From Acidobacteriota bacterium (GTDB taxonomy: Bacteria; Acidobacteriota; Thermoanaerobaculia; UBA5066), in assembly GCA_008363385.1 (NCBI GenBank), contig RHKY01000031.1:6522-70521 (forward strand): DNA of 64,000 nt, read 5' to 3'. Position numbers and translations under genes: made by a program. This document shows, one piece after another, positions 4,692 through 59,615 of this stretch. A model generated the notes under the pieces. The model did no database searches. It saw only the letters and a program-made list of their open reading frames with translations, and was not told the DNA's origin. Position 1 is the first letter of the stretch; each line of letters opens with the position of its first letter.

Positions 4692-6496
4692 GCCGCCCTC
4701 CCGCGGACCCGACGCACGGCTGGCTCGAGGAGCTTCGCCCCCCCCGCGTACAGCCGGATCGCCCAGAACATCGCTCGGATCTCGCCGACGAGCTTGACCG
4801 GGATCCACCAGGGCCGCGACAGATGGAAGCGCGTGCGGACCTCGCGGAACAGCCTGCGCGGGAAGAACAGAAGAGCTTCCCGTGCCGTCCCCTCCCGGAG
4901 AGCGAAGTAGTAGTCGCCGACGCCGTAGTCCGGCCGCGCGCTCTTCAGGTGCGACCCCTTCCTGCGAGTTCCGCCGGACTCCGCACGGAGGTGCCGTATC
5001 CGAGCCGTCGGCTCGAACGCGACGGTCCACCCGGACCTCCGGAGTCTCCTCACGAACTCCGTCTCGAACCGGTGCGCCGTGCCGCGAAAGGCCTCGTCGA
5101 AGCCGCCGACACCCAAGGCCGCCACCCGGCTGACGGACAGGTTCCCGGCCATGCAGTTGGCGACGACGGCCGGCTGCGTGGAGTTGAACCGGAAATCGAG
5201 GTCTTGCACGAGGCCGGCGGCGGCGCGGCGGGAGGCCGGCGGATCGATCGGCTCCTCGCCCGGCTGGAGCACCATGCCGACGACGGCGCCCACGCGCGCG
5301 CCCCGGTGAGCCGCCAGGTGGCCGGCGATCAGGTCGCGGTCGGGCACGAGGTCGTCGTCGAGGAACAGGACGACGGGCCTCGTCGCGCGGAGCAGGCCCT
5401 GGTTCATCGCCCGGGGGATCGAAGGCTCCGCGAGCTGGATCAGGCGGATCGCGCCGGCGGCGCTCCAGGCCCGGAGCCGAGCGGCCGTCTCCGGCAGGTG
5501 CTCCGGCGTCTGGTCCACCACGATCAGCTCTCCCGGGGGAGGATCGAGGGCGAGAACTGCTGACACGGTCTCGACGAGCACTCCCTCGCGGCCGAAGGTC
5601 GGGATCACGACGGAGACCCGGGCCCCGTCGCGAGCAGACTCCGCGACTTCGATTCCGGAAGCCGACGTCGTCGACGGCCGGTCGTCGGAGGTCCCGGCCT
5701 TCCGAAACGCGAGCTGCACGCAGTACCCCGCCCAGCCGGCCACCAGCACCTCGAGGAACCTCCGGAGGCCGCTGACGAGCCGACTGGTCCGGTTCCCGTA
5801 GACCCTCTTCATCCACGCCCGGATCAGCCCCTCGGCCTCGTCCTCGAGGCCCAGGACCCCTTCGTAGAAGGACCTGTCCAGGAGCCGGAAGCCGTGCCGC
5901 TCGATCTTCGCGACGGTGCGGTCCGGGTCGAGCGCATACTGGTTGAAAGGAGCTGCGGGCTCGGCGCCGGTGTCCAACGTCTCGTACCGGCGCCGCGCCG
6001 CCTTCCGGCGACGCAGCCAGGACATCGCGGGGAACGACACGAAGGCGACCCCGCCTGGCCTCAGGATCCGGTCCATCTCCGCGACGATCGGCTCGAAGCC
6101 ATCCCGGAAGTGGCCGATCACTCCCTGGCTGATGTAGACGTCCACCGATTCGGCCTCCAGCGGCAGGCGCCTCACGTCCGCCGCGGCCAGGAGCATCAGG
6201 GGCTCTTCCTGGCGCACCGCCGTGAGGGTCCTCGTGGAGAAGTCGACGCCGAGGCAGCGGTAGCCCCGCCGCCCCAGATCGCGGACGACGTTGCTCACTC
6301 CGCACCCGGCCTCCACGCAGAGGCCACCGGCAGGGGCGTGCTTCTCGATCATCCTCAGCAGCGTGCCCGGCGTCCCGGCGCGGATCGACACCGAGAGTCC
6401 GGTACCGAGGAGGCGCTCCCAGTTGCGCCCCCAGAACTCAGGCGTCGCCGCCTGGTCGAAGAAGGCCAGCTCGCCGTCGACGAGGAGCTTCAGCAC
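4688..6496 (-). CDS. Bifunctional class I SAM-dependent methyltransferase / GT2 glycosyltransferase
   Basis: N-terminal MTase motif I (LCVEAGCGVSNVV, VDFS acidic loop). C-terminal GT2-A fold (VSVVIPTFGRE, VVLFLDDDLVPD). Single continuous frame of 602 aa. Confidence 0.75.
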   Translation of the reverse strand: MLKLLVDGELAFFDQAATPEFWGRNWERLLGTGLSVSIRAGTPGTLLRMIEKHAPAGGLCVEAGCGVSNVVRDLGRRGYRCLGVDFSTRTLTAVRQEEPLMLLAAADVRRLPLEAESVDVYISQGVIGHFRDGFEPIVAEMDRILRPGGVAFVSFPAMSWLRRRKAARRRYETLDTGAEPAAPFNQYALDPDRTVAKIERHGFRLLDRSFYEGVLGLEDEAEGLIRAWMKRVYGNRTSRLVSGLRRFLEVLVAGWAGYCVQLAFRKAGTSDDRPSTTSASGIEVAESARDGARVSVVIPTFGREGVLVETVSAVLALDPPPGELIVVDQTPEHLPETAARLRAWSAAGAIRLIQLAEPSIPRAMNQGLLRATRPVVLFLDDDLVPDRDLIAGHLAAHRGARVGAVVGMVLQPGEEPIDPPASRRAAAGLVQDLDFRFNSTQPAVVANCMAGNLSVSRVAALGVGGFDEAFRGTAHRFETEFVRRLRRSGWTVAFEPTARIRHLRAESGGTRRKGSHLKSARPDYGVGDYYFALREGTAREALLFFPRRLFREVRTRFHLSRPWWIPVKLVGEIRAMFWAIRLYAGGAKLLEPAVRRVRGRAA

Positions 6497-29895: not shown

Positions 29896-30909
29896 TTAGT
29901 CCCGCGGGACCGGGGACGCAAGCGCGGGAGGTGCCGGAGGCGGTTCCGCCGGCTGCGGGCTTGCGAGGGCATTCCAGGTGCGCCGGAGTCCTTCTGGCAA
30001 CTCGGTTGCCAGGACGACTCCGAGTACCACCTCGAGCAGCACCGCGGACGCCGAGGAATGCCGGATGTCCCCAGCGCGCGGTGGCAGGTGCTCGACCGCG
30101 GAGGCGGAACCGCTCACGTGGAGGATGGAGTTCGCGAGGACCCGAACGGTCGTCGAGGAGCTTCTGCCAGAGTTCAATGGTTGCCCGTAGGCTGCGGGTG
30201 GGGCCGAGGCTGCCGCGAGGATTACCCCGACGACGTCCGCGACGTACGTGAAGTCCCGCGCCTGCTCGCCGTCGCCGTATATGGTCAGCGGGCGGCCGTC
30301 GCGGGCGGCAGCGAGGAACTTCGGGATGACGGCGGCGTAGGGGCCTTCTGGGTTCTGCCGCGGCCCGTAGACGTTGAAGAAACGGAGGCTGACGACCGGG
30401 AGGCCGAAGACGCGCCAGTAGAGCTCGGCCAGCTCCTCGCCCATTCGCTTCGAGAGGGCGTACGGGGAGAGGGGGCGGCCCTCTTCCCCTTCGACCTTCG
30501 GAAGTTTCTCGCTGTCACCGTAGACGCTGGAGGAGGAGGCGAAGACGACGGACCTTACCGCCGCATCCCGGCATGCGGTGAAGACGTTCGCGGTGCCGCG
30601 GGCGTTCACGTCGAGAGTCGTGGCGGGGTCCTTCATCGACCGGGGGACCGAGCCGATCGCCGCGAGATGGAAGACGTGGGCGGCTCCGTCGATCGCGGCG
30701 CGGCAGGCGTCCAGGTCCCGGATGTCTCCCTCGACGAAGCGGATCCGATCCCGGACGCCGGCCAGGTTCTCCAGCGTGCCGGAGAAGAGGTTGTCGAGGA
30801 CGGTGACCTCTGCCCAGCGGGCAACGAGGGCATCGACGAGGTGCGAGCCGATGAAGCCAGCGCCGCCGGTGACGGTGACGCGCTTGCCGCGAAAGTCGGG
30901 CTCGATCAT
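29896..30909 (-). CDS. SDR-family NAD-dependent sugar epimerase/dehydratase
   Basis: VTGGAGFIGSH, YALSK catalytic pair. ATG 30909 overlaps TGA of the dehydrogenase gene (ATGA). 337 aa. Confidence 0.8.
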   Translation of the reverse strand: MIEPDFRGKRVTVTGGAGFIGSHLVDALVARWAEVTVLDNLFSGTLENLAGVRDRIRFVEGDIRDLDACRAAIDGAAHVFHLAAIGSVPRSMKDPATTLDVNARGTANVFTACRDAAVRSVVFASSSSVYGDSEKLPKVEGEEGRPLSPYALSKRMGEELAELYWRVFGLPVVSLRFFNVYGPRQNPEGPYAAVIPKFLAAARDGRPLTIYGDGEQARDFTYVADVVGVILAAASAPPAAYGQPLNSGRSSSTTVRVLANSILHVSGSASAVEHLPPRAGDIRHSSASAVLLEVVLGVVLATELPEGLRRTWNALASPQPAEPPPAPPALASPVPRD

Positions 30910-32936
30910 GCCTTGACGAGCATCCCGGGGAAGGCGTCGCGGGGGACGATGTTGCGACTGTCGACGACGAGCGACGCGAGCTGGTAGAGCGCTGGGTCCT
31001 TGAACTGCCTGTGGGCGGTGGAGACGACGACGGCGTCGTGACGGCCTAACTCTTCGGCGGTGCAGGCTGCCGACTCCATCACGAAGGCGTGCTTGCGGCC
31101 GCGATGGGAGCGGGGGATGTACGGGTCGCAGTAGGCGACCTCGGCCCCGAGCTCGTGGAAGAGCTCGAGGAGCTCGAAGGAGGGCGACTCGCGGTCGTCG
31201 TCGATGTCGGCCTTGTACGAGAGGCCGAGTACGAGCACCTTCGCGCCCTTGATGCTCTTGCCTTGCTGGTTGAGCGCCTTGACCGTCCGGTCGACGACGT
31301 ACTCGGGCATCCGGGTGTTCACCTCGCCCGCGAGCTCGATGAACCGCGCCCAGACGCCGTGCTCCGCGGCCTTCCACGTGAGGTAGAAGGGGTCGAGCGG
31401 AATGCAGTTGTGCACGAAGACGCCGCCGGTGGCGGCGAAGGTGTGGGATCCGGGCACCTCGACCGAGAAGACGGGCTCGCTCCCCTCTTCGAGGCGGACG
31501 TCGAGGACCGGGACCACCGAGGCGCCCTTCCAGGGGATCGTGCGGCGGGGCGCGGTGACGCCCCGACGGCTCTCCGCGAGCCGATCGAGCTTCCGCTGCT
31601 TCTCGCCGCCCAGGAGGCGCGCCAGTCGCTGCAGGCTGGCCGTCCCGGGAATGCGAATCTGCGGCTGCTCGAGCCGGCGGATCGGTGCGGAGCCCGGGTC
31701 CTGGGGCAGGCCTTCGTCTGCGGCGAGTGCGGGCGCTGCCTCCTCAACCCCTCCGTGGACCGGGACGAGGTCGCCCGCCTTCAGGTCCTGCGCCTTCCGG
31801 ACGACGAGCTCGTCGTCTTCCAGGACCAGCATCGGGTGCCGGTCCGTGGTCCGGAGGATCCGGCCACCGGCCAGGCGGACGGTGGCGATCGGCCCTTCGT
31901 ACGGGCGCCGGAACAGGAACGAGACCGGCTTCCACGCCTCCTGGCCCGTCTGAGGGTCGATCGAAAGGGCTTCGAGTCCCGTCGGAAGGAGCGCCTGCCC
32001 GTCCGGCAAGTCGAGCCGCGTGTCGCTGGCCTGGCGCGACTCGAAGAGATCAGCCAGGCGCACGACCGTGTTGGACGAGCCGTCACGCACGCGGACCGAC
32101 TCCGTCCCTGCCAGGCAGTGTCCGCCCAAACCGGGACCCGGGTAGAAGGGCATGAAGCCGAAAGGCTTGGTCTTCGCGGCCTCGATGACCTCCCAGACGT
32201 CGATCCCCATCCGGTCGAAGACGACCTTCAGCTCGTTGACGAGGGCGATGTTGACGGACCGGAAGACGTTCTCGAGGAGCTTGGCCGACTCGGCGACCTC
32301 GGGGCTGCCGACGGGGACGACGCGGTCCACCGCGGCGCCGTAGAGGGCGCAGGCGGCCCGCTGCGAGGGCTCGTCGATGCCGCCGACGACCTTCGGGATG
32401 TTCTGCGTGTGGAAGCTGGGGTTGCCGGGGTCCTCGCGCTCGGGAGAGAAGGCGAGGAAGAAGTCCGTCCCGCAGGCGAGGCCCGTGGCCGCGAAGCGCG
32501 GCAGGAGCTCCTCGCGGGTCGTCCCGGGGTAGGTCGTCGACTCCAGGACGACGAGCTGTCCCCTGCGCAGGCGCCGGGCGATCTCGTCGGCGGTCTTCTG
32601 GATGTACGACATGTCCGGCTCGCGGTGCCGGCCGAGCGGGGTCGGGACGCAGACGATGACCGCGTCGCACTCCGGGAGGCGGTCGAAGTCGGTCGTGGCC
32701 GCGATCCGGCCCCGGGCGAACGCCGCTGCCACCCGCTCCGCCCCGATGTGCTTGATGTACGACTCGCCGCGGTGGAGCGCCTCGGGCTTCTTCGCGTCGA
32801 CGTCGAAGCCGACGACAGAAAAGCCGGACTCCTCGAAGAGGAGGGCGAGCGGAAGGCCGACGTACCCGAGGCCGATGACGCCGACCCGGGCGGTGCGGTT
32901 CTGGATGCTGTCGAGGAGGTGGTCGAGGGTATTCAT
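30906..32936 (-). CDS. UDP-sugar 6-dehydrogenase (UDP-glucose/UDP-ManNAc dehydrogenase family) interrupted by an intein
   Basis: RVGVIGLGYVGLPLAL NAD motif. Catalytic region GPGLGGH|C...|CIPLDPFYL split by a 237-aa insert. Host protein is about 439 aa without the insert. Confidence 0.8.
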   Translation of the reverse strand: MNTLDHLLDSIQNRTARVGVIGLGYVGLPLALLFEESGFSVVGFDVDAKKPEALHRGESYIKHIGAERVAAAFARGRIAATTDFDRLPECDAVIVCVPTPLGRHREPDMSYIQKTADEIARRLRRGQLVVLESTTYPGTTREELLPRFAATGLACGTDFFLAFSPEREDPGNPSFHTQNIPKVVGGIDEPSQRAACALYGAAVDRVVPVGSPEVAESAKLLENVFRSVNIALVNELKVVFDRMGIDVWEVIEAAKTKPFGFMPFYPGPGLGGHCLAGTESVRVRDGSSNTVVRLADLFESRQASDTRLDLPDGQALLPTGLEALSIDPQTGQEAWKPVSFLFRRPYEGPIATVRLAGGRILRTTDRHPMLVLEDDELVVRKAQDLKAGDLVPVHGGVEEAAPALAADEGLPQDPGSAPIRRLEQPQIRIPGTASLQRLARLLGGEKQRKLDRLAESRRGVTAPRRTIPWKGASVVPVLDVRLEEGSEPVFSVEVPGSHTFAATGGVFVHNCIPLDPFYLTWKAAEHGVWARFIELAGEVNTRMPEYVVDRTVKALNQQGKSIKGAKVLVLGLSYKADIDDDRESPSFELLELFHELGAEVAYCDPYIPRSHRGRKHAFVMESAACTAEELGRHDAVVVSTAHRQFKDPALYQLASLVVDSRNIVPRDAFPGMLVKA
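31407..32117 (-). mobile_element. Mini-intein (237 aa, no LAGLIDADG endonuclease) inserted at catalytic Cys of UDP-sugar dehydrogenase
   Basis: Block A CLAGTESVRV (Cys1). Block B TTDRH (TxxH). Blocks F/G VFSVEVPGSHTFAATGGVFVHN followed by +1 Cys (CIPLDP). Splice junctions verified against nucleotides (tgc at 32117..32115; aac-tgc at 31409..31404). Confidence 0.75.
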
Positions 32937-32965
32937 GCTTTTCTGTTGCGAGAGCGGCGCGGAGA

Positions 32966-33319
32966 CTATGGCGACTCGGGTGTCGGCGCCGGCGGTGACA
33001 GTGGCTCGAGGACAGCCACCAGCGGCGGGATGTCCTCGCGGACCGTCTTCCACACGCCCTCGAGGTCGACGGAGTCGTACCCGTGGATCAGGATGTCGCG
33101 GGAGCCCGCGATCCGGCGCCAGGGAACCTCGGGGTGGGCTTCTCGGTATTCGGCAGAAAGTCGCTTCACGGCTTCCCCGAGCACGAGCAGCTGGTGCAGA
33201 ACCGCGGACTGGGTCTTCTCGTCCGCCTTGAACGAAGGCAGGTCGAGCTCACCCAGGAAGGCCGCAGCGTTGCGGGCCGCGCGAAGCGCGTCGAGGACGG
33301 ACGCTTCATCGCGCTGCAT
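32966..33319 (-). CDS. hepT: HepT-like HEPN toxin (DUF86)
   Basis: R-x4-HxY motif (RDILIHGY). Downstream partner of the MNT gene. Confidence 0.75.
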
Positions 33320-33665
33320 AGAGGGGCTCGGCCGTCGACAGGATCTCGTTCCGGCGGATCCAGTTGGGGCTGCTCTCCACGGCCGAACGGACGAGCAGGT
33401 CGACCGGCCGACCGAAGAGCTCGGAGAGCTCGTCACGCATCTGCCCTTGATCCAGGAGGGACCAGATCGTGTCGGCCTGAGGCGTGAGAAGGAGGTCCAC
33501 GTCGCTGTCGGGCCCGAAACTCGCGCGCAGGACGGATCCGAAGGCCGCGAGCTCGGCCACTCGCCACCTCTCGCAGAACGCTGCGAGCGTCGCCGGATCC
33601 ACCGAGATCGACAGGCTCATCGAGGGCATTCTATCGACGGCGCTCGCCGCGAGCCTTCGGGTCAT
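33306..33665 (-). CDS. mntA: MntA-like minimal nucleotidyltransferase antitoxin
   Basis: [20 protein letters not shown]-x(n)-DxD Pol-beta NTase motif. Overlaps hepT start. Confidence 0.75.
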
Positions 33666-33695: not shown

Positions 33696-33983
33696 TCAGG
33701 TGCCCGCCTCCGCCTCACGGACCATCTCGGGCGTGATCGCGGGTGCGTCCTCGGGGACGTCGAACACCGGAAAGCCGCCCCGTTCCCGGACCTCACCCGA
33801 GGCCGTTGGACCGCCTCGCGCGGGGGCGGCGAGGCCCTCGTCGGCCAGCGCCTGTTCGAACTCGGGATCGAGCTTGGCGCATTCCTCTCCCAGGCGTCGG
33901 TGCCTACGCCGCGATCTGCTCGTACGAGAACTCCGGGATCCCTCTCGATCCAGGCCTGGGAGGCTACGGCGGACCTTCTTCAT
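33696..33983 (-). CDS. Hypothetical small protein upstream of mntA/hepT
   Basis: 95-aa ORF with Arg-rich N-term. Only positional support. Confidence 0.25.
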   Translation of the reverse strand: MKKVRRSLPGLDREGSRSSRTSRSRRRHRRLGEECAKLDPEFEQALADEGLAAPARGGPTASGEVRERGGFPVFDVPEDAPAITPEMVREAEAGT

Positions 33984-34149
33984 CGTCTTCGCGTTCGACA
34001 GGATCCAGGGGGGCCAGAGCAGCCCCTCGTGCCGTGTTCGTCGGCGGCGATTCGCACCCGATCAGGCGACCCTGGCTTCCACGTACTCGGCCCGGGTGGC
34101 GGGCACGTCCTCGCTGCGTCTGGACGAGGCCGGCGCCGACGAGCCGAGG

Positions 34150-34542
34150 TCACCCTCGGCCGAGGTCCCCCGCCCGGCGCGCGGCCTTCCGCATCAAGGC
34201 GAGGTACGCCGGGAGGCGCGAGTAGACCTCTTCGGCCATCGCGGCCTTGTAGAGGTGGCTGGTCCTGTTGCGGTCCTCCAGCATCTGGAAGACGACGTCG
34301 TCGCCTTCGTCCAGGAGCCCGATCTGAAACGCAGCCCGGAAGGCCTCCCGTGGGGAAAAGAGCCGCAGGCCCTCCGCCTCCGAGCGCACCTTCAGAGTCT
34401 TCCAGAGAAGCTCGAACGAGAACTCGAAGCGCTGGATGGCTGCGTCCCGGACGATGTCGGACTTCGGCTCCCGCAGCGCCTCGTCGAGCCTGGCCAGCGC
34501 CGACTCGAGGTCCGACAGGAGCGATTCAAGCGGCGCGGTCAT
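34150..34542 (-). CDS. HI0074-type nucleotidyltransferase substrate-binding (HEPN) protein
   Basis: IQRFEFSFELLWKTLK...NRTSHLY pattern of NTase_sub_bind family. Follows cognate NTase. Confidence 0.7.
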   Translation of the reverse strand: MTAPLESLLSDLESALARLDEALREPKSDIVRDAAIQRFEFSFELLWKTLKVRSEAEGLRLFSPREAFRAAFQIGLLDEGDDVVFQMLEDRNRTSHLYKAAMAEEVYSRLPAYLALMRKAARRAGDLGRG

Positions 34543-34846
34543 GCAGGGGCACCACGTCTCGAAGGGCGATCTCGCGGAACTGCGCGTCGACCTGCCGGAA
34601 GTCGACGACGTCCACTCGGGCCAGGATCGGGGCCGCGTCGAGGAGGTCGCGGAGGTCCGCCATGTCCCGGGCGTCGAGCGGGCGGCCCGCGTCCACCCCG
34701 ATGTCGTAGTCCGAACGGACGTCGGCAGAGCCCCGGGCCCGCGACCCGAAGAGGAAGACGCGCAGGGGACGGTATCCGGAGAGCGGTCCGGCTACGGCAG
34801 CATCGACCGCCTCCAGCAGCACTTCGGGTAGATCGGTTCGCGTCAT
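34526..34846 (-). CDS. HI0073-type nucleotidyltransferase
   Basis: LFGSRARGSADVRSDYDIGV NTase motif. 106 aa. Confidence 0.75.
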   Translation of the reverse strand: MTRTDLPEVLLEAVDAAVAGPLSGYRPLRVFLFGSRARGSADVRSDYDIGVDAGRPLDARDMADLRDLLDAAPILARVDVVDFRQVDAQFREIALRDVVPLHDRAA

Positions 34847-34998
34847 CGCGTTGTCAGCTCACCCTGGACTTCGGTCAGGCCCGCGGCGCGGTCAGGCCGC
34901 GAGGCACGGGAGGCGGCTCAGGTTCCCAGCCGGCCTTCTCGAAGGCCTTCGCCGCGGATCTCCCGGAGATGTTGCCGAACCGCGACACGAATCCGCCT

Positions 34999-35214
34999 TC
35001 AGACGGCCACGACGATGGGCGTACCCTGCGAGTCGGAGCTGCGCGCCGACAGGGCCTTCTGATCTTCGGCCCAGAGCCAGGCCCGAATCGCCTCCTGGAT
35101 GTTCTCGAGCGCCTCCTTCTCGTCCTTCCCCTGGGAGACGCATCCCGGCAAGGCAGGACACTCCACCACGAACCAACCTTCCTCGTCCTTCTCCAGAGTC
35201 ACGTGAAACAACAC
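34999..35214 (-). CDS. HicB-like antitoxin (UPF0150 family)
   Basis: HVTLEKDEEGWFVVECPALPGCVSQGKDEKEALENIQEAI, the HicB N-domain. GTG start. Confidence 0.6.
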   Translation of the reverse strand: MLFHVTLEKDEEGWFVVECPALPGCVSQGKDEKEALENIQEAIRAWLWAEDQKALSARSSDSQGTPIVVAV

Positions 35215-35235
35215 GGTCCTGCCTCCGATCGAATC

Positions 35236-35331
35236 CTACGCTCCCACACCGAGGTCCCGGGTCTCGACGACGTCGCCGGCCCGGAACTCGATGTAGAGGG
35301 TGTCGGTCTCGACGAAGTACTCGACCTTCAC
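35236..35331 (-). pseudogene. Truncated DUF2283-like ORF (31 codons)
   Basis: My translation: VKVEYFVETDTLYIEFRAGDVVETRDLGVGA*, matching the N-half of DUF2283 proteins (MKIEYDKEADALYI...). GTG overlaps TGA of the HEPN gene (GTGA). Normal length is about 65-75 aa. Confidence 0.3.
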
Positions 35332-35750
35332 GGCTTGCCGCCTTCCAGCAGGCTCGTCGCCAGGTCCACGGCCTGTCGCGCGATCGAGACGGCGTCCTCG
35401 GCGTCATCGCGTCCGAACAACTCCCACGGCGTGCGCCAGGTCCCCTCGTCTCCGTAGTCGGATGCGACGTGCACGGCTGCTCCCAGCCGCTCGGCGAGGG
35501 TTGCCAGCTTGTCGAGGGCGCTCTGGCTCGCGGTGGCCGTCGATTCGGCAGCGAGCTGCCGCAGCAGGCTCCCGGGGGCATGAGTCCTTCCGACCGGTCC
35601 GGCATTGGCGAGGACCGCCTTCGCGGCGTTCTCCGTCGCGAGCTCGCTGGTGTCGACGCACGAACGCCAACGGCCCAGATCGATGTCCTGGGTGGCCTCG
35701 CCCAGGTACCCCTTCGCCAGCTTGATCCGGTAGGCGACTTCCTCGTTCAC
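35328..35750 (-). CDS. HEPN domain protein (partner of upstream MNT)
   Basis: C-terminal 140 aa of track ORF. HEPN-like helical protein. GTG 35750 overlaps TGA of MNT gene (GTGA). Confidence 0.6.
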   Translation of the reverse strand: MNEEVAYRIKLAKGYLGEATQDIDLGRWRSCVDTSELATENAAKAVLANAGPVGRTHAPGSLLRQLAAESTATASQSALDKLATLAERLGAAVHVASDYGDEGTWRTPWELFGRDDAEDAVSIARQAVDLATSLLEGGKP

Positions 35751-36223
35751 CGCTTCGCTCCATCCAGAGCAATGGGCTGCGCGTCCGCCGACCTCGGCCT
35801 GACCCTCCAGACTTCGCCGTCGGGCGTGCGGACCCGGAAGAGGCCGCGAGCGAACATCCTGGCCCGCAAGGCTTCGAGTCGCCGGCTGGCGTGCCCCTCG
35901 GGGTCGAAGAGGACGTCCCCGTCGAGGGCGATGTCGAAGAGGAGCGACGACTCGTGCCTCTCCAGCTCGTCCAGCGTCCACACGATCGGCGAGACCATCC
36001 CCCGCCACGACTCGGGCAGGCTCATGACCAGCTCCACGACCTCGCGCACTGGACGCTCATGCCGGGCCCGGATCACGACGAGAAGGTCCCAGTCGCTCCC
36101 AGGCTCGGCCTCGCTCCGCGCTCTCGAGCCGAACGAGACGATGGCGACGAGGCGGCCGGCGAGCGAGCGCCGGAACGCCGCGACCAGCTCCTCACGCGAC
36201 GGGCAGAGCGATTGGAGGTTCAC
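35747..36223 (-). CDS. Minimal nucleotidyltransferase (MNT) domain protein
   Basis: VSFGSRARSEAEPGSDWDLLVV Pol-beta NTase motif. 158 aa. Confidence 0.75.
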   Translation of the reverse strand: MNLQSLCPSREELVAAFRRSLAGRLVAIVSFGSRARSEAEPGSDWDLLVVIRARHERPVREVVELVMSLPESWRGMVSPIVWTLDELERHESSLLFDIALDGDVLFDPEGHASRRLEALRARMFARGLFRVRTPDGEVWRVRPRSADAQPIALDGAKR

Positions 36224-36275
36224 TGACTTCGGGGCCTTCTCTTCGCGAGCTCGGAAGGATGCCTGAGCGACTGTC

Positions 36276-36329
36276 TCACGGCGCCTGGACGAGGCCGGCG
36301 CCGACGTCGGTGGCCAGGAGCGGGAGGCG
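36276..36329. repeat. Direct repeat copy B: duplicated 3' end of the S8 protease gene (50/54 identical to 36885..36938)
   Basis: tcacggcgcctggacgaggccggcgccgacgtcggtGGCCaggagcgggaggcg. On the minus strand it encodes RLPLLATDVGAGLVQAP*, identical to the protease C-terminus, with only synonymous differences. Confidence 0.85.
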
Positions 36330-36331
36330 GC

Positions 36332-36562
36332 TCAATCCCGGAGGAAGTCCTCGGGGTCGATCCCGGCCTGGCGCAGGATGGCCCGCAGGGTACCTTCGGG
36401 AATATCGCCCGGGTGGTTGGGAAGGGTCGTGTACCTGTTTCTTGCGGGGTGATACCAGATCTCGTGGCTCCCGGCCGCTTGCCGATCGAACTCGAATCCG
36501 CGACGCCTCAGCCGGGCAGCGATCTCCCGATAGCGGAATCCGGCAAGCCTCCCCAGGATCAG
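36332..36562 (-). CDS. hicA: HicA-family mRNA interferase toxin
   Basis: Not in ORF track (no ATG/GTG/TTG). My translation: LGRLAGFRYREIAARLRRRGFEFDRQAAGSHEIWYHPARNRYTTLPNHPGDIPEGTLRAILRQAGIDPEDFLRD*. Conserved GSH...HP and GTL..IL.QAG motifs. Candidate CTG starts at 36562 (overlapping hicB TGA) or 36556 (GGAGG 6 nt upstream). Confidence 0.6.
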   Translation of the reverse strand: MILGRLAGFRYREIAARLRRRGFEFDRQAAGSHEIWYHPARNRYTTLPNHPGDIPEGTLRAILRQAGIDPEDFLRD

Positions 36563-36789
36563 CCTCCGACGACGAGCGTCAGATCCAGCGGCTCGCTGAT
36601 GGGCGGCGGTTCGTCGAGTGGCTCCCGACCGGCCTGCGCGTCGAGGAGCTTCCTCGCAACGTCGCGAGCGATCTCGAGGGTCTCCGCGATCGTCCGCCCC
36701 TGGGCGACCAGCCCCTGTACGTCTTCCGATGACGCCAGGAAGACGCCCTCGGGCAGCCGCTCCACGTGAACTCGGATGATCCGTTCCAA
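36559..36789 (-). CDS. hicB: HicB-family antitoxin
   Basis: VHVERLPEGVFLASSEDVQGLVAQGRTIAETLEIARDVARKLLDA. TTG start. Confidence 0.7.
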   Translation of the reverse strand: MERIIRVHVERLPEGVFLASSEDVQGLVAQGRTIAETLEIARDVARKLLDAQAGREPLDEPPPISEPLDLTLVVGG

Positions 36790-36884
36790 GGGACAGCTCC
36801 TTCAGCGTCCGGGCTGCCGGCCAGTCGGATCGGCCTCCCGGACATGCTTCCGGCTCATTCTATGGTGGGTCGCGCGCGGGCCCT

Positions 36885-38192
36885 TCACGGCGCCTGGACG
36901 AGGCCGGCGCCGACGTCGGTCGCGAGGAGCGGGAGGCGCTTGGCGGTCTGGGTGATCAGGGTCCAGATCTCGAGCGGCGTGGCGGTGGGGTTGGCCTCGG
37001 CGAGGAGGGCGGCGATGCCGGCGACGTGCGGCGTCGCCATGCTGGTGCCCGAGAGGCGCTGGTAGCGCTCGGGCATCGGGAAGCTGGAGTGGACGTCGAC
37101 GCCGGGGGCGGCGACGTCCACCTGGCCTCCCTTCGGGTCGAGGCCGCGGTTGGAGAAGGACGGGACGCGCAGCTTCGGGTCGAGGGCGCCGACGGCCATC
37201 ACCGAGGGGCAGTTGGCCGGGTGGCCGACGGGGGCGAAGTGCCCGGTTCGCCGCTCGCTCTCGTTGCCGGCGGCCGCGACGACGAGCGTCCCCTTCTTCA
37301 GGCCGCGCTTGGCGGCCGTCTCGAAGACCTTCGAGTACGGCTGGCCAAGCGAGACCTCGGCCCCGAGGGACATCGAGACGACGCGGCAGCCCTTCGAGAT
37401 GGCCCAGTTGACGCCCGCGAGGATCCAGCCGTCCGCCCCGCCGCCGTTGTCGTCGAGGACCTTCCCGGCGTGGATCCCGGCCTCGTGGGCGACGCCGTAC
37501 CGGGGCATGTGGTACGGCGCCTTCGGGCCGCACGCGGTGCCGATGCAGTGGGTGCCGTGGCCGTGGCCGTCCTGCGGCTTCGACCCCGGGACGAAGCTCT
37601 CGGCGACGATCTCGCGGTGCGGGTAGTCGGGGTGCTTGAGGTCGAAGCCGGTGTCGAGGACGGCGACCTTCACTCCCTTTCCCGAGAAGGCCGAGCGGTG
37701 GACGTTCGTGGCTTGCAGGCCCCAGGTGTACTCGCTCTCGCCGAGGGCGGGCGAGCCGAGGAGATCCAGGGCTCCGGGGGCGGCTTCTGCCGCGAGCTGG
37801 GCAACGAGGTCGTTGACGGCGTCGCGGTAGCCGCGGAGGTACTCGGGGAGGTGGGACGGGTCGTCGTGAAGGGCGCGGACGGCCCTCTCCGGCTCGACGG
37901 CGAGGAGGGGGCCCTGGGCCGAGGCCTTCTCGGCGAGCGAGCGGGCTTGGTCGGGGTCCGCGTCGACGAGGGCGACCCCCAGCTCGTGGAGGACGTAGGC
38001 GTCGGCCTCGCCCAGGTCGTCTTCCGTGGCCCGGCAGCCGGCGAAGTCGGCGCTGCACGCCGCCCGCAGGCCGGCGGCGTTCCTGAGGTCCGCGACGCCG
38101 AACCCGTCCAGCCCCTCGCGGAAGAGGACGAGGAGCCGGCCGGTGGTGGCGGGCGCCTTCGCGGGCGGGGGTTCGAGGCGAGGCTTTCTCAT
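36885..38192 (-). CDS. S8-family subtilisin-like serine peptidase
   Basis: Catalytic triad regions VAVLDTGFD (Asp), HGHGTHCIGT (His), GTSMATPHVAG (Ser). 435 aa. No obvious signal peptide. Last 54 nt (36885..36938) form direct-repeat copy A. Confidence 0.85.
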   Translation of the reverse strand: MRKPRLEPPPAKAPATTGRLLVLFREGLDGFGVADLRNAAGLRAACSADFAGCRATEDDLGEADAYVLHELGVALVDADPDQARSLAEKASAQGPLLAVEPERAVRALHDDPSHLPEYLRGYRDAVNDLVAQLAAEAAPGALDLLGSPALGESEYTWGLQATNVHRSAFSGKGVKVAVLDTGFDLKHPDYPHREIVAESFVPGSKPQDGHGHGTHCIGTACGPKAPYHMPRYGVAHEAGIHAGKVLDDNGGGADGWILAGVNWAISKGCRVVSMSLGAEVSLGQPYSKVFETAAKRGLKKGTLVVAAAGNESERRTGHFAPVGHPANCPSVMAVGALDPKLRVPSFSNRGLDPKGGQVDVAAPGVDVHSSFPMPERYQRLSGTSMATPHVAGIAALLAEANPTATPLEIWTLITQTAKRLPLLATDVGAGLVQAP

Positions 38193-38442: not shown

Positions 38443-38961
38443 TCAGGTCCCACGGACACCTCCTGACCACGCGGCCCAACGCTCGGCGAGCCCGAACCTC
38501 TCGAGAATCGAAGCGAGCCGGCGCGCATCCACCTCCGCTTCCTCGAGCAGCTGTTGCGCCCGGACACGGTCCTTCGACCGCCCCGTCTGAACAGCAATGG
38601 CGAGAAGGTACTCCACCCGGACGACCCTCGTCGGAGTCCCTCCAACCGTGTGCGGCTGCGCGTTGCGCGCGGCCTCCAGCACCAGGGAGTTGTACGCCGG
38701 AAGGAGCTGCACCGGGATGCCATGAAGAACGACGTGCTCGCCCTGCGGGACTCCGCCGCGACTCTTCAGGAATGCCAGCTGCGGCTCCATCGTGACGACG
38801 GCAGCGTTCGCCTGGCTCTCGGATAGAACGACGAAGACGTCGAGGTCGTGCGTCGCGACCGGTTCAGCGTAGAAGAGCGCGGCCACAGCGCCCCCGATCG
38901 CGTACGTCTCGACGAGACCCGCCTCGACGAGCTCGTTCAGGACTTCGAGAACGGCTTCCAT
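38443..38961 (-). CDS. Pol-beta-superfamily nucleotidyltransferase-like protein (AbiEii/DUF2204-like)
   Basis: From M38 of track ORF: YAIGGAVAALFYAEPVATHDLDVFVV (G[GS]-x(n)-DxD). 172 aa. Paralog of the next gene. Confidence 0.5.
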   Translation of the reverse strand: MEAVLEVLNELVEAGLVETYAIGGAVAALFYAEPVATHDLDVFVVLSESQANAAVVTMEPQLAFLKSRGGVPQGEHVVLHGIPVQLLPAYNSLVLEAARNAQPHTVGGTPTRVVRVEYLLAIAVQTGRSKDRVRAQQLLEEAEVDARRLASILERFGLAERWAAWSGGVRGT

Positions 38962-38971
38962 CGTGATTCGT

Positions 38972-39538
38972 TCAGGCTCGCTGCTCGCCCGGCGGGAGGA
39001 TCTTCTCGAGGAGGTGAGTGACGCCGGCGCTGGCTGCCTCGCGCCGGATGTAGGCGAGGTCGATGGCCTCACCGCAGCCAGCGAGGACGGAGGCCGCGTC
39101 TCGGAGCTGGCGCTCGGATCCGGAGAGGGCGGCCCACTTGAGCTTCGAGACGATGGAGCCCTCCGGGGAGATGACGTAGACGTCGACGTCGAACAGGCGC
39201 GCCCCCCTCCGCCTCGCGAGCTCGCCGCGCTCGAAAGGCCGATCGGGGCACACGATCAAGTCCGCCTTCCATCCGGACTCGAGGTGGATGACATTGAGCA
39301 TCCCCCGGGTCCTCAGGGCCTCGGCGGCCTCGTCCCGGCTGACGTAGAAGCCCTCCTTCAGCTCGTCCAGCAGACGGCTCAGCTGCGCTGGCCGCGGGTC
39401 GAAGACGACGTCGACGTCCTGGGTGGCTCGTGGCTCGCCGTAGAAGGCGGAGGCGGTGGAGCCAGTGATCATCCAGGGTATCCCCGCGGCATTCAGGGCA
39501 GCCGCGAGCCGGACGAGGATGTCGCGTGGAGAGGTCAT
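38972..39538 (-). CDS. Pol-beta-superfamily nucleotidyltransferase-like protein (AbiEii-like), paralog
   Basis: From M73 of track ORF: ITGSTASAFYGEPRATQDVDVVFDP. ...SIVSKLKWAALSGSERQLRDAASVL resembles the AbiEii C-region. ATG overlaps stop of upstream small ORF. Confidence 0.5.
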   Translation of the reverse strand: MTSPRDILVRLAAALNAAGIPWMITGSTASAFYGEPRATQDVDVVFDPRPAQLSRLLDELKEGFYVSRDEAAEALRTRGMLNVIHLESGWKADLIVCPDRPFERGELARRRGARLFDVDVYVISPEGSIVSKLKWAALSGSERQLRDAASVLAGCGEAIDLAYIRREAASAGVTHLLEKILPPGEQRA

Positions 39539-40174: not shown

Positions 40175-40453
40175 TCAGCGCCCCAGGAGGCGCGCCACCC
40201 TCGCGTAGACGTCGCGGCGATGGCCGACCGTGACCACGACGACTGTGACCTTCTCTCCCTGGACCTGGTAGACGATCCGCCAGTCGCCGGTGCGCCAGGA
40301 GCGGAGGCCTTTGAGCTCGAAATGGAGCGGCTTTCCGAGAGTCGGGTCGGACGCGAGCTCGAGGACCGCTCTCCGGACTCTCTCGCGGACCGCAGGGTCG
40401 AGCTTCCGGATCGCGTCTCGGGCCGAGTGGGTGTAGACGACCGTCCAGGTCAA
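40175..40453 (-). CDS. relE: RelE/ParE-family toxin
   Basis: MTWTVVYTHSARDAIRKLDPAVRERVRRAVLELASDP...LRSWRTGDWRIVYQV typical RelE/ParE. ATGA overlap with antitoxin gene. Confidence 0.8.
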   Translation of the reverse strand: MTWTVVYTHSARDAIRKLDPAVRERVRRAVLELASDPTLGKPLHFELKGLRSWRTGDWRIVYQVQGEKVTVVVVTVGHRRDVYARVARLLGR

Positions 40454-40704
40454 CCCCAGACCTCGTCTTGACCGACGACGCGCCCCTCACGGAGGTCCTT
40501 CAGGCCCGAGCGGATTCGCTTCATCAACCGCGGGTCGGAAAGGATCTCCAGGGTCTCCAGGAGCCCCTCGTACTCGTCGACGGAAACCAGCACACCCGCC
40601 GGGTGCCCCGACCGGGTGATGACGAGTGGCTCGCCGAGGTCTTCAACTCGCGCCAGCAGCCCAGCCAGGTGGGCCTTCGCTTCGGAGAGAGGGACCTGCT
40701 TCAT
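40450..40704 (-). CDS. yefM: Phd/YefM-family antitoxin
   Basis: MKQVPLSEAKAHLAGLLARVEDLGEPLVITRSGHPAGVLVSVDEYEGLLETLE canonical YefM. Confidence 0.8.
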   Translation of the reverse strand: MKQVPLSEAKAHLAGLLARVEDLGEPLVITRSGHPAGVLVSVDEYEGLLETLEILSDPRLMKRIRSGLKDLREGRVVGQDEVWG

Positions 40705-45597: not shown

Positions 45598-45990
45598 TCA
45601 GGCCGCAGCAACCAGAGGGATCGAGTAGAGCCCGAACGACGGGTCCGCCGTCATGACGGTCAGCTTCTCGACGAGCGCCTGCGCGACGAGAAGCCGGTCG
45701 AACGGGTCCCGGTGGTGCATAGGAAGCGACGCGACCTGCAGGGCATGCGAGTGAGCGATCGGAAGCGGCTCGAGCGCCTGGGCCGCCATCCGGGAGGGCA
45801 CGAACGTGGAGGGTGGCTCCGGGAGGGTCAGCTTGCCCAGGGCGTACTTGATCGCGATCTCCCACGCGGATGCGGCCGAGAGGTAGACGGTGTTCCGGCG
45901 CGAGACCAGGAGCCTGCGCGCTTCCGGCGACAGTCGTTCCGGCTCCGCGAGGCTCCAGAGCCAGCAGTGCGTGTCGACGAGGAGCTTCAC
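45598..45990 (-). CDS. vapC: VapC PIN-domain toxin
   Basis: MKLLVDTHCWLW...(D) N-term, PFDRLLVAQALVE..LTVMTAD acidic residues. ATGA overlap with antitoxin. Confidence 0.8.
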   Translation of the reverse strand: MKLLVDTHCWLWSLAEPERLSPEARRLLVSRRNTVYLSAASAWEIAIKYALGKLTLPEPPSTFVPSRMAAQALEPLPIAHSHALQVASLPMHHRDPFDRLLVAQALVEKLTVMTADPSFGLYSIPLVAAA

Positions 45991-46220
45991 CCTTCGAAGT
46001 CCCGGAGGACGTCCTCGGGAAGCGGAGCGTCGAAGTCGTCGGCGATCCGGATCTTCCCGGCGTCGAGGCCCAGCGGACGCCGCGGGCTCGACGCGTCGAA
46101 CGGGACCAGCCGGGCCACGGGCTTCCCGGCGCGAGCGATGACGATCTCCTCGCCGGCCTCGACGCGGACGAGAAGCTGCGAGAGGCGGGTCTTCGCGTCG
46201 TGAACGTTGACCTCGGTCAT
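45987..46220 (-). CDS. vapB: Phd/YefM-type (VapB) antitoxin
   Basis: MTEVNVHDAKTRLSQLLVRVEAGEEIVIARAGKPVARLVP. Confidence 0.7.
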   Translation of the reverse strand: MTEVNVHDAKTRLSQLLVRVEAGEEIVIARAGKPVARLVPFDASSPRRPLGLDAGKIRIADDFDAPLPEDVLRDFEG

Positions 46221-47081: not shown

Positions 47082-47330
47082 TCAGGAGACCGGGGAGCCC
47101 GGGGGGCCGATCGAGACGTCGCGCGCGAGGTCGACGGCCTCGACGCCGTCGAGGTCCGTGAGGCGGCCGACGACGTCCCCCGGCGCGCGGCCGGTGATCG
47201 TGCCGACCGACTCGAGGACGCCGTCCACCGTCATCCCGGCAGCCCGCAGGCGGCCGGCGACCTCGTGGAGGCGATCGCCGTGGAGCTCATCGACGGTGAC
47301 GACGACGGGGACGAGGCTGGTCGCGGTCAT
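47082..47330 (-). CDS. Hypothetical 82-aa protein (first gene of mntA-hepT operon)
   Basis: Strong RBS GGAGGTGA 4 nt before ATG. Its RBS plus first 29 codons are duplicated 602 bp upstream. Confidence 0.4.
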   Translation of the reverse strand: MTATSLVPVVVTVDELHGDRLHEVAGRLRAAGMTVDGVLESVGTITGRAPGDVVGRLTDLDGVEAVDLARDVSIGPPGSPVS

Positions 47331-47340
47331 CGCTCACCTC
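47242..47340. repeat. 99-bp perfect direct repeat, copy 1 (identical to 47844..47942)
   Basis: gcccgcaggcggccggcgacctcgtggaggcgatcgccgtggagctcatcgacggtgacgacgacggggacgaggctggtcgcggtcatcgctcacctc read at both loci. Confidence 0.9.
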
Positions 47341-47488
47341 CTTTTTCGTCTCCGGCTCCAGCGCGGCGGCGGAGCAAGAAGTCCCGGCACGCCACTGCTC
47401 GCCCGTGCAGCCCGTCTCCATGGGCGAGTCGGGCGACGGCCAGGTCCTCCTCGGCGAAGGCGAGCCAGGTCTCAGGCAGCCCGCTCAT
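47327..47488 (-). pseudogene. Truncated HEPN-domain gene fragment (about 54 codons) ending at the repeat boundary
   Basis: MSGLPETWLAFAEEDLAVARLAHGDGLHGRAVA resembles a HEPN N-terminus. Frame terminates inside repeat copy 1. Overlaps MNT stop. Confidence 0.35.
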
Positions 47489-47840
47489 ACAGCACGCGGC
47501 CGCTCCCGAGGATCTCGTCCCGCACGAAGGGCCGCTCGGCGACGAGTCGCTCCAGCTCGGCCGGGGTGTAGGCCAGGATGTCCGTGGCGACGACCGGGCG
47601 GAGGATCCGGCGAAGCTCGGCCAGGCGCCGGAAGAACGGTGCGTCCGTATCCAGGACGACGACGAGGTCGATGTCCGAGTCCTCTTGGGGGGCTCCTCGC
47701 GCAACGGATCCGAAGACCAGGACCGTCCGGACCCGGTGGTCCCGGGACAGGATCCCCACGTAGCGAGCCAGCTCCGCGCGAAGGAGCGCGAGGCGATCGC
47801 TCGGATCAGCCGAGTCCGGGGCGGAAAGCGAAGTCAACAT
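47472..47840 (-). CDS. Minimal nucleotidyltransferase (MNT) domain protein
   Basis: VLVFGSVARGAPQEDSDIDLVVV motif. ATG overlaps stop of a 32-codon leader ORF created by repeat copy 2. Confidence 0.75.
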   Translation of the reverse strand: MLTSLSAPDSADPSDRLALLRAELARYVGILSRDHRVRTVLVFGSVARGAPQEDSDIDLVVVLDTDAPFFRRLAELRRILRPVVATDILAYTPAELERLVAERPFVRDEILGSGRVLYERAA

Positions 47841-47843
47841 GAT

Positions 47844-47942
47844 GCCCGCAGGCGGCCGGCGACCTCGTGGAGGCGATCGCCGTGGAGCTCATCGACGGTG
47901 ACGACGACGGGGACGAGGCTGGTCGCGGTCATCGCTCACCTC
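47844..47942. repeat. 99-bp perfect direct repeat, copy 2
   Basis: Identical to 47242..47340. Carries RBS+ATG+29 codons of the 82-aa gene, here terminating after ...LRASC*. Confidence 0.9.
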
Positions 47943-52938: not shown

Positions 52939-53124
52939 GGCCCGATTAGATCATGGTCAATGTCCATGGTCCAACTCCGCTTCCCGCGCGCCTGCGGACG
53001 CCCGGCTCCCCGACGGCGGGTGCCCGGGAAGGGCCCCTCGAAGCCGAGCCGGCCAAGCCTCGCGACGAAGTCGCGCCGCTTACAGGGTCGCCACGGCACG
53101 GGCCGGCCCCTCGTCGAGGTCGAA

Positions 53125-53238
53125 GACCCGGGGGTCAGAGCTCCGTTCTACGTTCTACGGGGCGGTTACTTGACCCCGCGAGACCCGGGGGTCAGAGCTC
53201 CGTTCTACGTTCTACGGGGCGGTTACTTCACCCCGAGG
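53125..53238. repeat. 57-bp tandem duplication (2 copies), each with terminal inverted repeat GGGGTCAG...CTTGACCCC and internal GTTCTAC x2
   Basis: Copy 2 contains the last 5 codons plus stop of the FKBP gene. Copy 1 still reads ...RGVK* on the minus strand. Confidence 0.75.
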
Positions 53239-59146: not shown

Positions 59147-59590
59147 GCCGGGACCTCCTTCTGGGGCTCCCGCGCCCGCGGGACCGACGGGGACCGTCGG
59201 GAAAACGTATCACGACCCGGCTCCGCCCCCCCTCGCCGGGTCAGCGCCGATTCCTGACCCGTCCCGAGGGTCAGCGCCGAACCCCGAGGCCCGACGAGAA
59301 TTCGCCGAATCGATCACACGCGGCGCCCGTCGCCAGGCCGCCCCGAGGCGCGCCGGGTGGCGCCGGCCTTGCAGAATCCACCGCGCGGAAGGAGCCGCAC
59401 GGGGGGCAAGAACCCTCGCATCCGACCTGCGAGGCTCCCGGTGACTCCTTCTGCTGTTCCTTTGCCGTCGATCGGACGGATGCGCCGGCCCGGGCGGAGG
59501 AGGAAGGGCCGCGCGGGAGGGGAGACCCGCCCGCGCGGCCCGGTTCTGCGTCCGCGGACCCGGCGCGGACCCGGCGCAGAGGCCCGAGCA

Positions 59591-59615
59591 GAACGTAGAA
59601 TGGAGCTCTGACCCC
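59591..59615. repeat. Partial inverted copy of the 53125..53238 repeat unit (GAACGTAGAAtGGAGCTCTGACCCC)
   Basis: 24/25 match to the reverse complement of ggggtcagagctccgttctacgttc. Flanked by further GGGGTCAG. Confidence 0.45.

Follow-up and report, generated by a model that had tools for sequence, protein, structure and literature searches.

The window analysed here is a whole 64,000-nt stretch of an Acidobacteriota genome (assembly GCA_008363385.1, contig RHKY01000031.1, positions 6,522 to 70,521), and the numbering throughout refers to that stretch. It carries a gene for an S8 (subtilase) protease whose 3' end is duplicated on the far side of a hicBA toxin–antitoxin (TA) cassette. Shorter copies of the same gene end lie at the borders of other TA cassettes, both in the window and in a second species; all of them are called tail copies below. 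A relative with a similar protease has no TA genes at this position, another TA cassette of the window is flanked by repeats of a different gene, and no recombinase gene is seen in the window. At this locus TA cassettes have accreted in an array behind the conserved end of a gene unrelated to them, and two species preserve the scars.

Tail copies and the hicBA cassette

Every gene near the protease and hicBA lies on the minus strand. The features of this region are the following.

36885..38192, minus strand: S8 (subtilase) protease, 435 aa, the gene with the duplicated 3' end (Pfam Peptidase_S8, 3.6e-54)
36885..36938, minus strand: T1, the functional protease tail, final 17 codons and TGA (repeat search; invariant in 13 contigs of the species)
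36790..36884, minus strand: spacer between T1 and hicB, with the ATAGAATG (TAGAAT, -10-like) motif (read off the sequence)
36559..36789, minus strand: hicB-like antitoxin, 76 aa, N-terminal HicB/UPF0150-type domain only (weak matches)
36335..36556, minus strand: hicA toxin, 74 aa (Pfam HicA_toxin, 2.5e-19)
36275..36332, minus strand: T2, non-coding 58-nt tail copy directly abutting the hicA stop codon (52/54 against T1)
34892..34920, minus strand: candidate degenerate tail fragment, 14 nt exact including the preceding TGA (not above chance alone)
34111..34140, minus strand: T3, the 3' 30 nt of the tail, 27/30, stop tga changed to cga (alignment score 47 against a background maximum of 37)

The original prediction, made from the letters alone, was that the final 54 nt of the protease gene (36885..36938) have a second copy at 36276..36329, at a spacing of 609 bp; a repeat search and self-BLAST find exactly this (E=1e-18). 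The identity is 52/54 (96.3%), with two differences, and not 50/54 with four, as was counted then. Both differences (ctc/ctg for Leu, gcg/gcc for Ala) fall at third codon positions and, as had been claimed, are synonymous in the protease frame. One end of the repeat coincides exactly with the stop codon of the protease, where it begins. The protease open reading frame (ORF) is intact, its product is 100% identical to P0001, a protein of 'Acidobacteria bacterium ACD', and its C-terminus RRLPLLATDVGAGLVQAP is kept throughout the subfamily.

All tail copies have the orientation of the protease and share its last 27 nt. Their 5' reach varies (58, 34, 30 and 27 nt), whereas the 3' limit is constant: in T1, T2 and T3, in the protease orthologues of two relatives (loci L002 and L003) and in the fragments of two further loci (L100 and L101) it is the stop codon plus one G, beyond which the flanks diverge. 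The similarity between the window, L002 and L003 ends at the same stop codon and G, that is, the constant limit is the end of the protease homology. When T2 is compared with the two orthologues, the similarity reaches 57–58 nt, including the G past the stop, and T2 is closer to their tails (56/57 to L003, 55/58 to L002) than to its own T1 (52/54). Among contigs of the same species T1 is invariant, and T2 is polymorphic at two sites (ctg/ctc and ggc/ggt), both third codon positions. The synonymous differences between T1 and T2 and the polymorphism of T2 would fit descent of both copies from real protease alleles.

Exactly three copies of the 21-mer ctggacgaggccggcgccgac are present in the 64 kb (34120, 36285, 36894), with 0.01 occurrences expected by chance. 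One of them belongs to T3, which starts 9 nt past the stop codon of a gene for an HI0074-type protein. Shorter fragments had been proposed at both edges of this gene and its partner. The one at 34120..34140 stands, as part of T3; the other, at about 34885..34920, is within the background. It contains the 14-mer tgagccgcctcccg, an exact match at 34907..34920 in common with the hicA/T2 junction, and its gapped local alignment score of 36 lies inside the range of 30–37 observed for the background of the window; a 17-mer search allowing up to three mismatches gave five matches against 1.8 expected. As a tail copy this fragment is suggestive only. Just upstream of it, at about 34921..34995, a hicA-like N-terminal remnant can be read from the sequence, without a Pfam match.

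The high GC content of the genome and the small fragment near 34900, which is at the chance level, might favour chance similarity, a dispersed REP-type (repetitive extragenic palindromic) repeat or an assembly artefact as the source of the tail copies. The expectation for the 21-mer and the E-value of the 54-nt repeat argue against chance. Both T1 and T2 are carried by 13 independent contigs of the species, originating from different samples, hence the structure is not an assembly artefact, and it has a counterpart in the second species. A search for other copies, suggested along with the prediction, found none in the window outside the array, and hence the tail is not a REP-type element. We regard this family of explanations as having almost no probability, and for T1, T2, T3 and the L100/L101 copies it is refuted. 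Two other candidates were rejected. In a diversity-generating retroelement with template and variable repeats (TR/VR) the differences would be at adenines; here they are not, there is no reverse transcriptase, and the copies encode an identical peptide. A translated mini-ORF or a frameshift extension of hicA was considered, as the tail frame is open across hicA; this is usual in GC-rich DNA, and the first possible start in the frame is a TTG only 19 codons ahead of the end.

As predicted, the hicB–hicA pair lies exactly between T1 and T2. The cassette is 555 nt long and holds only these two genes, hicB and then hicA, which fill the interval. The hicB-like product has weak matches to HicB structures (PDB 6u0i, E=0.006; 6hpb, E=0.007) and to Pfam DUF1902 (E=0.0013, below the cutoff); it has no NCBIfam match and no DNA-binding domain. 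For the hicA product, P0121, named HicA by NCBI, is 99% identical, and homologues of 74–75 aa indicate the native length. The hicA gene has no ATG, GTG or TTG start and is missing from the program-made ORF list, although NCBI annotates the 74-aa product. The candidate starts are CTG at 36556 or ATC at 36559, overlapping the hicB TGA (36554..36562), and this context suggests translational coupling or a non-canonical start. At the joints, hicA ends with GGGATTGA, the tail runs GCCGCC...GCCGTGA, the spacer starts with AGGGCCCGC, and the DNA beyond T2 is GACAGTCGCTCAGG. A consensus promoter scan of the spacer region gave no site. The ATAGAATG motif is found also upstream of one L101 cassette, and it may be a promoter element, judging by its -10-like form.

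The TA island, its relatives and a second repeat-flanked cassette

In the 3' direction the protease is followed by the hicB-like gene, hicA, an MNT/HEPN pair, a truncated DUF2283 gene, a HicB-like gene, an MNT/HI0074-type pair and an MNT/HepT pair, and then by genes for a UDP-sugar dehydrogenase, an epimerase and a glycosyltransferase. Hence the region is a TA island, with the protease on one side and a polysaccharide gene cluster on the other. Beyond T2, the island contains the following features.

35328..36223, minus strand: cassette of MNT (158 aa, 35747..36223) and HEPN (35328..35762) (Pfam NTP_transf_2 and HEPN)
35240..35330, minus strand: interrupted DUF2283 gene, 5' part only, 31 codons (Pfam DUF2283, 1.5e-6)
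34999..35214, minus strand: HicB-like antitoxin, 71 aa (Pfam HicB_lk_antitox, 2.1e-8)
34150..34846, minus strand: cassette of MNT (106 aa, 34526..34846; Pfam Polbeta, 1.5e-9) and NTase_sub_bind/HI0074-type HEPN (130 aa, 34150..34542; Pfam NTase_sub_bind, 2.1e-30)
34062..34109, minus strand: 3' remnant of an unknown gene, ending in DVPATRAEYVEARVA and a stop (read off the sequence)
33904..33943, minus strand: 3' end of the interrupted DUF2283 gene, ending in GIPEFSYEQIAA and a stop (94% identical to L100 1639-1673)
32966..33665, minus strand: cassette of MNT (33306..33665; Pfam NTP_transf_2, 8e-13) and HepT (32966..33436; Pfam HepT-like, 8e-25), the final one of the island before the UDP-sugar dehydrogenase

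In L002, which encodes an 85%-identical protease, the stop codon is followed by 72 nt and then by an epimerase and a glycosyltransferase; there is no TA gene and no second tail. The genes downstream are also not the same as in the window. In L003, with an 80%-identical protease, a different gene again begins 76 nt past the stop. It had been proposed to compare empty and occupied sites in relatives. L002, where the protease leads straight into polysaccharide genes, provides one side of that comparison; a site empty of hicBA alone was not found among the 13 contigs of the species, all of which are occupied.

A 73% homologue of the 158-aa MNT led to L100 and L101, which come from the same sample as L003. 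They contain the block MNT107–HepT81–MNT158–HEPN138–DUF2283. Upstream of it, in L101, a 27-nt exact tail fragment (T27) stands directly after the TGA of the preceding gene; in L101 it is the homologue of the gene end at 34062..34109 that has the 27-nt fragment directly behind it. Downstream of the block, in L100, a 34-nt exact tail fragment (T34) overlaps the DUF2283 TGA and is followed by a hicA–hicB cassette. The MNT/HEPN cassette of the window is 80% identical at the nucleotide level to L100 604-1561, and the MNT/HepT cassette is 82% identical to L100 14-583; an exact look-up of the MNT158 protein of the window returned no match. Going by these alignments, a second species also has tail scars at the borders of its cassettes, which are arranged in a different order. 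The earlier suggestion that insertion had happened repeatedly is borne out, since tail copies bound other TA cassettes as well, including those of L100/L101. The hicA of the next cassette in L100 (1755-1964) has an in-frame TGA where its homologues have Trp (AGW). With the W restored the product is recognized as HicA (3e-17), so that the gene may be a pseudogene or may contain a read-through stop.

Among 60 genome and metagenome loci, together with L112 and L116–L119, the tail duplication was found only in the species of the window. It is absent from the loci of distant proteases (63–35% identity), though many of them have the same C-terminal peptide. A profile search of genome contigs with alignment A1 yielded relatives of at most 56% identity among the matches listed. 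In several distant loci small TA-like genes lie between the protease and polysaccharide genes, and this position is therefore a general hot spot. The matches in L031 and L080 are unrelated long multidomain proteases and were set aside. So was a 54-nt repeat around the protease and island of L112, a REP-like hairpin element (CCCCCTTACCAAGGGGG) unrelated to the tail, with copies at 1019-1071 and 4993-5046.

The second repeat-flanked cassette of the window (47242..47942) is built in the following way.

47844..47942, minus strand: R1, upstream copy, the ribosome-binding site and first 30 codons of an 82-aa gene (self-BLAST, 100% over 99 nt)
47341..47843, minus strand: inserted cassette, MNT of 122 aa (47472..47840) and a truncated HEPN-like ORF (Pfam Polbeta/NTP_transf_2)
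47242..47340, minus strand: R2, downstream copy, the true start of the 82-aa gene (47082..47330) (self-BLAST)

The 122-aa MNT matches NCBIfam MntA (1.5e-9). The HEPN fragment behind it was read from the sequence and has no Pfam match. The insert is 503 nt long; its left end lies 3 nt before the ATG of MNT and its right end inside the HEPN gene. With the left joint in this position, the truncated upstream ORF terminates in an ATGTTGA that overlaps the start of MNT. The insert is present in seven contigs of the species. In L104, of the same species, the upstream flank is followed by a single copy of the repeat and the gene, with 100% identity over 2 kb downstream. It looks like an unoccupied allele, or possibly a mis-join by the assembler. 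The 99-nt repeat shares no sequence with the protease tail, while the design is the same: a TA cassette of about 500 nt enclosed by long direct repeats, and one repeat limit at a gene border. No comparable repeat-flanked structures were found in about 1.6 Mb of other fetched loci. Just upstream of the 99-nt repeat, most contigs of the species have a further 60 nt with a CCCCCTCTCTCCAGGGGG hairpin, similar to the REP-like element of L112 (L105 596-656, L110 697-757, L104 1-55); the window lacks this segment (47942/47943).

Not every joint in the array follows this scheme. With the intact 67-aa DUF2283 gene of L100 (1474-1677) as a reference, the homology from the 5' part in the window ends at 35250, and the two halves (35250..33943) are separated by about 1.3 kb, with about 77 nt lost and no flanking repeat. 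The stretch between them holds the hicB-like gene, the doubtful tail fragment, the HI0074-type pair, T3 and the gene remnant. This is an ordinary illegitimate insertion–deletion. L100 has a truncated HepT gene that is joined to the start of MNT158. Plain illegitimate events have thus also occurred in the array, and the island is a patchwork and no tidy cassette array.

Several other observations concern the surroundings. The UDP-glucose/GDP-mannose dehydrogenase of the window (30906..33053) and that of L103 (7965-9995) contain an intein (676–715 aa, Pfam Intein_splicing). The enzyme is intein-free (439 aa) in contigs L090 (9648-10967) and L094 (4108-5427) of the same species, hence the intein is subject to presence/absence polymorphism. 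Two other TA cassettes nearby are variable too: Phd/ParE (40175..40704) is missing in L002 and L003, and VapB/VapC(PIN) (45598..46220) in L105, a 97%-identical strain. Neither is flanked by repeats of a neighbouring gene end. Directly upstream of the protease (38443..39538), two genes of 172 and 188 aa have weak nucleotidyltransferase matches (DUF2204, AbiEii, E about 1e-3); they are present in L002 and absent from L003, and may be an additional TA-like pair of the hot spot. Finally, a tandem repeat with a 55–57-nt unit, 98% identical, lies at 53124..53235, upstream of the start of an FKBP isomerase gene and overlapping it, and has an inverted partial copy of 26 nt at 59590..59615.

Possible routes of insertion

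The duplication was originally interpreted as site-specific integration with attL and attR. Some features of such an event are present, namely, the element lies between direct repeats that contain the gene's 3' end, and the protease ORF is intact. However, the interpretation is unproven, as there is no recombinase, no fixed att site and no special fold. The statement that no integrase is visible agrees with Pfam scans, which covered all large ORFs of the window as well as the 555-nt cassette and found no integrase, resolvase or transposase domains; the large ORFs encode glycosyltransferases, sugar-modifying enzymes, an ABC transporter, a DUF4143 ATPase, central metabolism and more TA genes. 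Since the 5' limits vary (58/34/30/27 nt), there is no fixed att site, and the TA cassette between 99-nt repeats, which copy the 5' end of an unrelated gene, shows that the tail as such is dispensable. The folds of T1 and T2 DNA, on both strands, are no better than those of dinucleotide shuffles (z from -0.13 to +0.50), although the centroid folds of both have a common hairpin, GGCGCCGGC...GGCGCC. No GTT/AAC core pair, as in the inverted attC cores R'' (RYYYAAC) and R' (GTTRRRY), is present at the tail ends, and no 11-6-11 dyad symmetry of an Xer/dif-like site was seen by eye. The 64 kb contain no intI with an adjacent attI; a cluster of attC sites lacking an integrase (CALIN) needs none, so that action in trans is compatible with this. 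The tail has no Rfam match and no promoter or terminator consensus, and its 27-nt core is missing from a viral contig collection.

The reading that we favour, at about an even chance of being right, is that the tail copies are scars of homology-anchored insertions, either by a Campbell-type single crossover or by homology-facilitated illegitimate recombination (HFIR). The pathway of recombination, a circular intermediate, the direction in which each event went and the part played by addiction are inferred. The donor would be DNA of a relative, with the conserved protease end and a TA cassette, which would recombine with the resident protease gene. In a Campbell-type crossover, a circularised fragment holding only the last 27–58 nt of the gene would be integrated; in HFIR, the non-homologous end would be joined inside the resident tail. 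Either route would produce an intact protease tail, the new cassette, a 5'-truncated old or duplicate tail and the previous downstream DNA. In repeated rounds the cassettes would be stacked, the older ones being shifted downstream together with their tail scars (sequential displacement). A cassette between direct tail repeats could also be excised by RecA as a circle and re-inserted at any homologous tail, and such loop-out and re-insertion could account for the different cassette order in the two species. The predominance of TA genes may be a matter of survivorship, as loss by recombination between the repeats would be counter-selected by addiction.

Homology-anchored insertion needs no integrase, and it would explain why the copies end where the gene homology ends, why their 5' limits vary and why the same design occurs at another gene. 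Variable 5' limits are expected because each would be an independent illegitimate joint or circle closure. There are precedents for each element. In E. coli selections for HFIR, most products were single crossovers of truncated circles with 109–950 bp of the anchor duplicated (PMC3240628). In rhs loci, strings of core fragments of variable length follow intact genes, and the model involves a circular intermediate and homologous recombination (PMC2935791). For effector–immunity arrays of the type VI secretion system (T6SS), HFIR with sequential displacement was proposed (PMC5361080).

Several points weigh against this reading. Three of the four clear tail fragments start 0–1 nt past a native stop codon (hicA/T2, DUF2283/T34 and gene X/T27), and the joint of the 99-nt case precedes a start codon by 3 nt. 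Random illegitimate joints are rarely so exact, and a defined cassette end, as in integrons, explains this precision better. The homology of 27–34 nt is at or below the usual efficient length for a RecA-dependent crossover; the copies of this length could be later truncations of longer ones. The presence of two flanked structures in 64 kb, against none in the other loci fetched, hints at an activity specific to this lineage. Among the loci examined there is no donor arrangement and no circle junction, and no site lacking only hicBA. If the gene end had been imported, lineage-specific substitutions might concentrate in the last 100 nt of the protease, but no significant excess is observed there (Fisher p=0.22).

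Some of these points would be expected of an integron-like site-specific system, in which an att-like tail copy (core GCGCCGGCCTCGTCCAGGCGCCGTGAG) follows the last stop codon of each TA cassette, and a recombinase supplied in trans integrates cassettes, as circles, at the stop codon of the protease, so that new ones enter at the front of the array. The abutment of tail fragments on the stop of the preceding gene in three of four cases speaks for it, and so does the lineage-specific occurrence of flanked cassettes. In two species and behind different cassettes, the copies agree in their 27-nt 3' core and in their 3' limit (TGAG), the cassette order differs as if shuffled, and the island-free L002 marks the protease end as the insertion point. 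On the other hand, the 64 kb contain no recombinase, the varying 5' limits have no shared motif, inverted core sites and a stable fold are lacking, the 99-nt repeats consist of an unrelated sequence, and the block of cassettes inside DUF2283 was inserted without any tail. Moreover, sister clades with the same C-terminal peptide of the protease have no tail duplication. We consider such a system a serious rival, with perhaps one chance in a few. A variant, somewhat more doubtful still, is an analogue unrelated to integrons, with the conserved 3' end of a housekeeping-type protease gene as the primary attachment site and mobile TA cassettes ending with a stop and a 27–58-nt copy; a recombinase encoded at another locus, or dedicated host recombination, would insert, excise and reorder the cassettes.

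The repeats could also arise without guidance by homology, as a long target-site duplication, if a stray fragment were ligated into a staggered double-strand break (nicks 54–100 nt apart) or captured by a replication template switch. Such break-repair capture agrees with the lack of terminal inverted repeats in both inserts (555 and 503 nt), with the truncated gene at the end of one of them, as in a random fragment, and with the different duplication lengths (54–58 and 99–102 nt). However, it leaves unexplained that a repeat limit coincides with a gene or module border (stop plus G, ribosome-binding site), that several cassette borders, in two species, bear tail scars, and that T2 resembles the protease alleles of other species more than T1; hence we hold it improbable. 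Very unlikely, in our opinion, is that the tail copies are not scars at all and were spread by selection as RNA or DNA signals, such as a 3' stabilising hairpin or a terminator (GGCGCC-N11-GGCGCC). The GGCGCCGGC...GGCGCC hairpin is the same in both centroid folds, and the shortest copies keep exactly the hairpin part. Yet the fold energy is that of shuffled sequences (z about 0), there is no T-run and no terminator-like site, the second GGCGCC is lost in T3, and a signal would not account for copies that match the coding sequence all the way to its stop.

TA modules are known to cluster in hot spots, but the route by which cassettes lacking an integrase arrive is rarely visible. Here, preserved insertion scars let the order of events be read: the conserved gene end is a landing pad, cassettes accrete ahead of older ones, and the same logic is seen at a second gene of the window. 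If homology-anchored insertion is the true mechanism, the displacement known for polymorphic toxins (rhs, contact-dependent inhibition (CDI) and T6SS) extends to ordinary TA cassettes, which also suggests why the surviving repeat-flanked inserts are addictive modules. If site-specific recombination is responsible, this is a new cassette-capture system, and the unexplained precision of the joints leaves space for something more novel. Under either explanation the locus provides concrete junction sequences for excision circles and empty sites.

Comparison with known systems

Islands and prophages inserted in the 3' ends of genes (tRNA, tmRNA and protein genes) resemble the locus in having direct repeats with the gene 3' end, an intact gene and tandem accretion. 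They differ in that they carry their own integrase beside att and are kilobases long, whereas the hicBA unit has 555 nt and the 64 kb have no integrase. Integron cassettes and CALINs share with the array compact cassettes, a repeat beginning at the stop codon, an ordered array, entry at a single end, an abundance of TA cassettes, which is frequent in chromosomal integrons, and a cassette order that varies between relatives. In contrast, no intI or attI, no R''/R' cores (GTTRRRY) and no significant hairpin are found here, and the repeat copies a coding gene end.

In Campbell-type insertion–duplication (PMC3240628), a heterologous insert likewise lies between direct duplications of the anchor, with one limit set by the end of homology in the circle. 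The experimental duplications, however, were 109–950 bp and came from a plasmid, whereas those described here are natural and 27–102 nt long.

The arrays of rhs (Jackson et al. 2009, PMC2935791) and the orphan modules of CDI and Rhs loci are similar in that an intact conserved gene is followed by modules bounded by fragments of variable length in the same orientation, and in that a circular intermediate and homologous recombination are proposed to push older modules downstream. In rhs, however, what is displaced is the variable C-terminal end of the conserved protein itself, together with its immunity gene. Here the protease C-terminus is unchanged, the modules are independent HicAB and MNT/HEPN operons with no known link to the protease, and the fragments are shorter (27–58 nt). 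The T6SS modules of Vibrio cholerae (Kirchberger et al. 2017, PMC5361080) also have a conserved upstream anchor, with new modules at the front and old ones shifted back, sometimes along with the old gene's 3' end, and an integrase is not known for them. The authors of that study themselves draw an analogy with integrons. There, retention is attributed to the benefit of the immunity gene, whereas here it would be due to TA addiction, and the remnant tails of the present array are more regular, being found at nearly every border. By analogy with these systems, the locus appears to function like a displacement array of the rhs, CDI or T6SS kind, but it falls outside that class, since none of its displaced modules is a C-terminal domain of the anchor gene.

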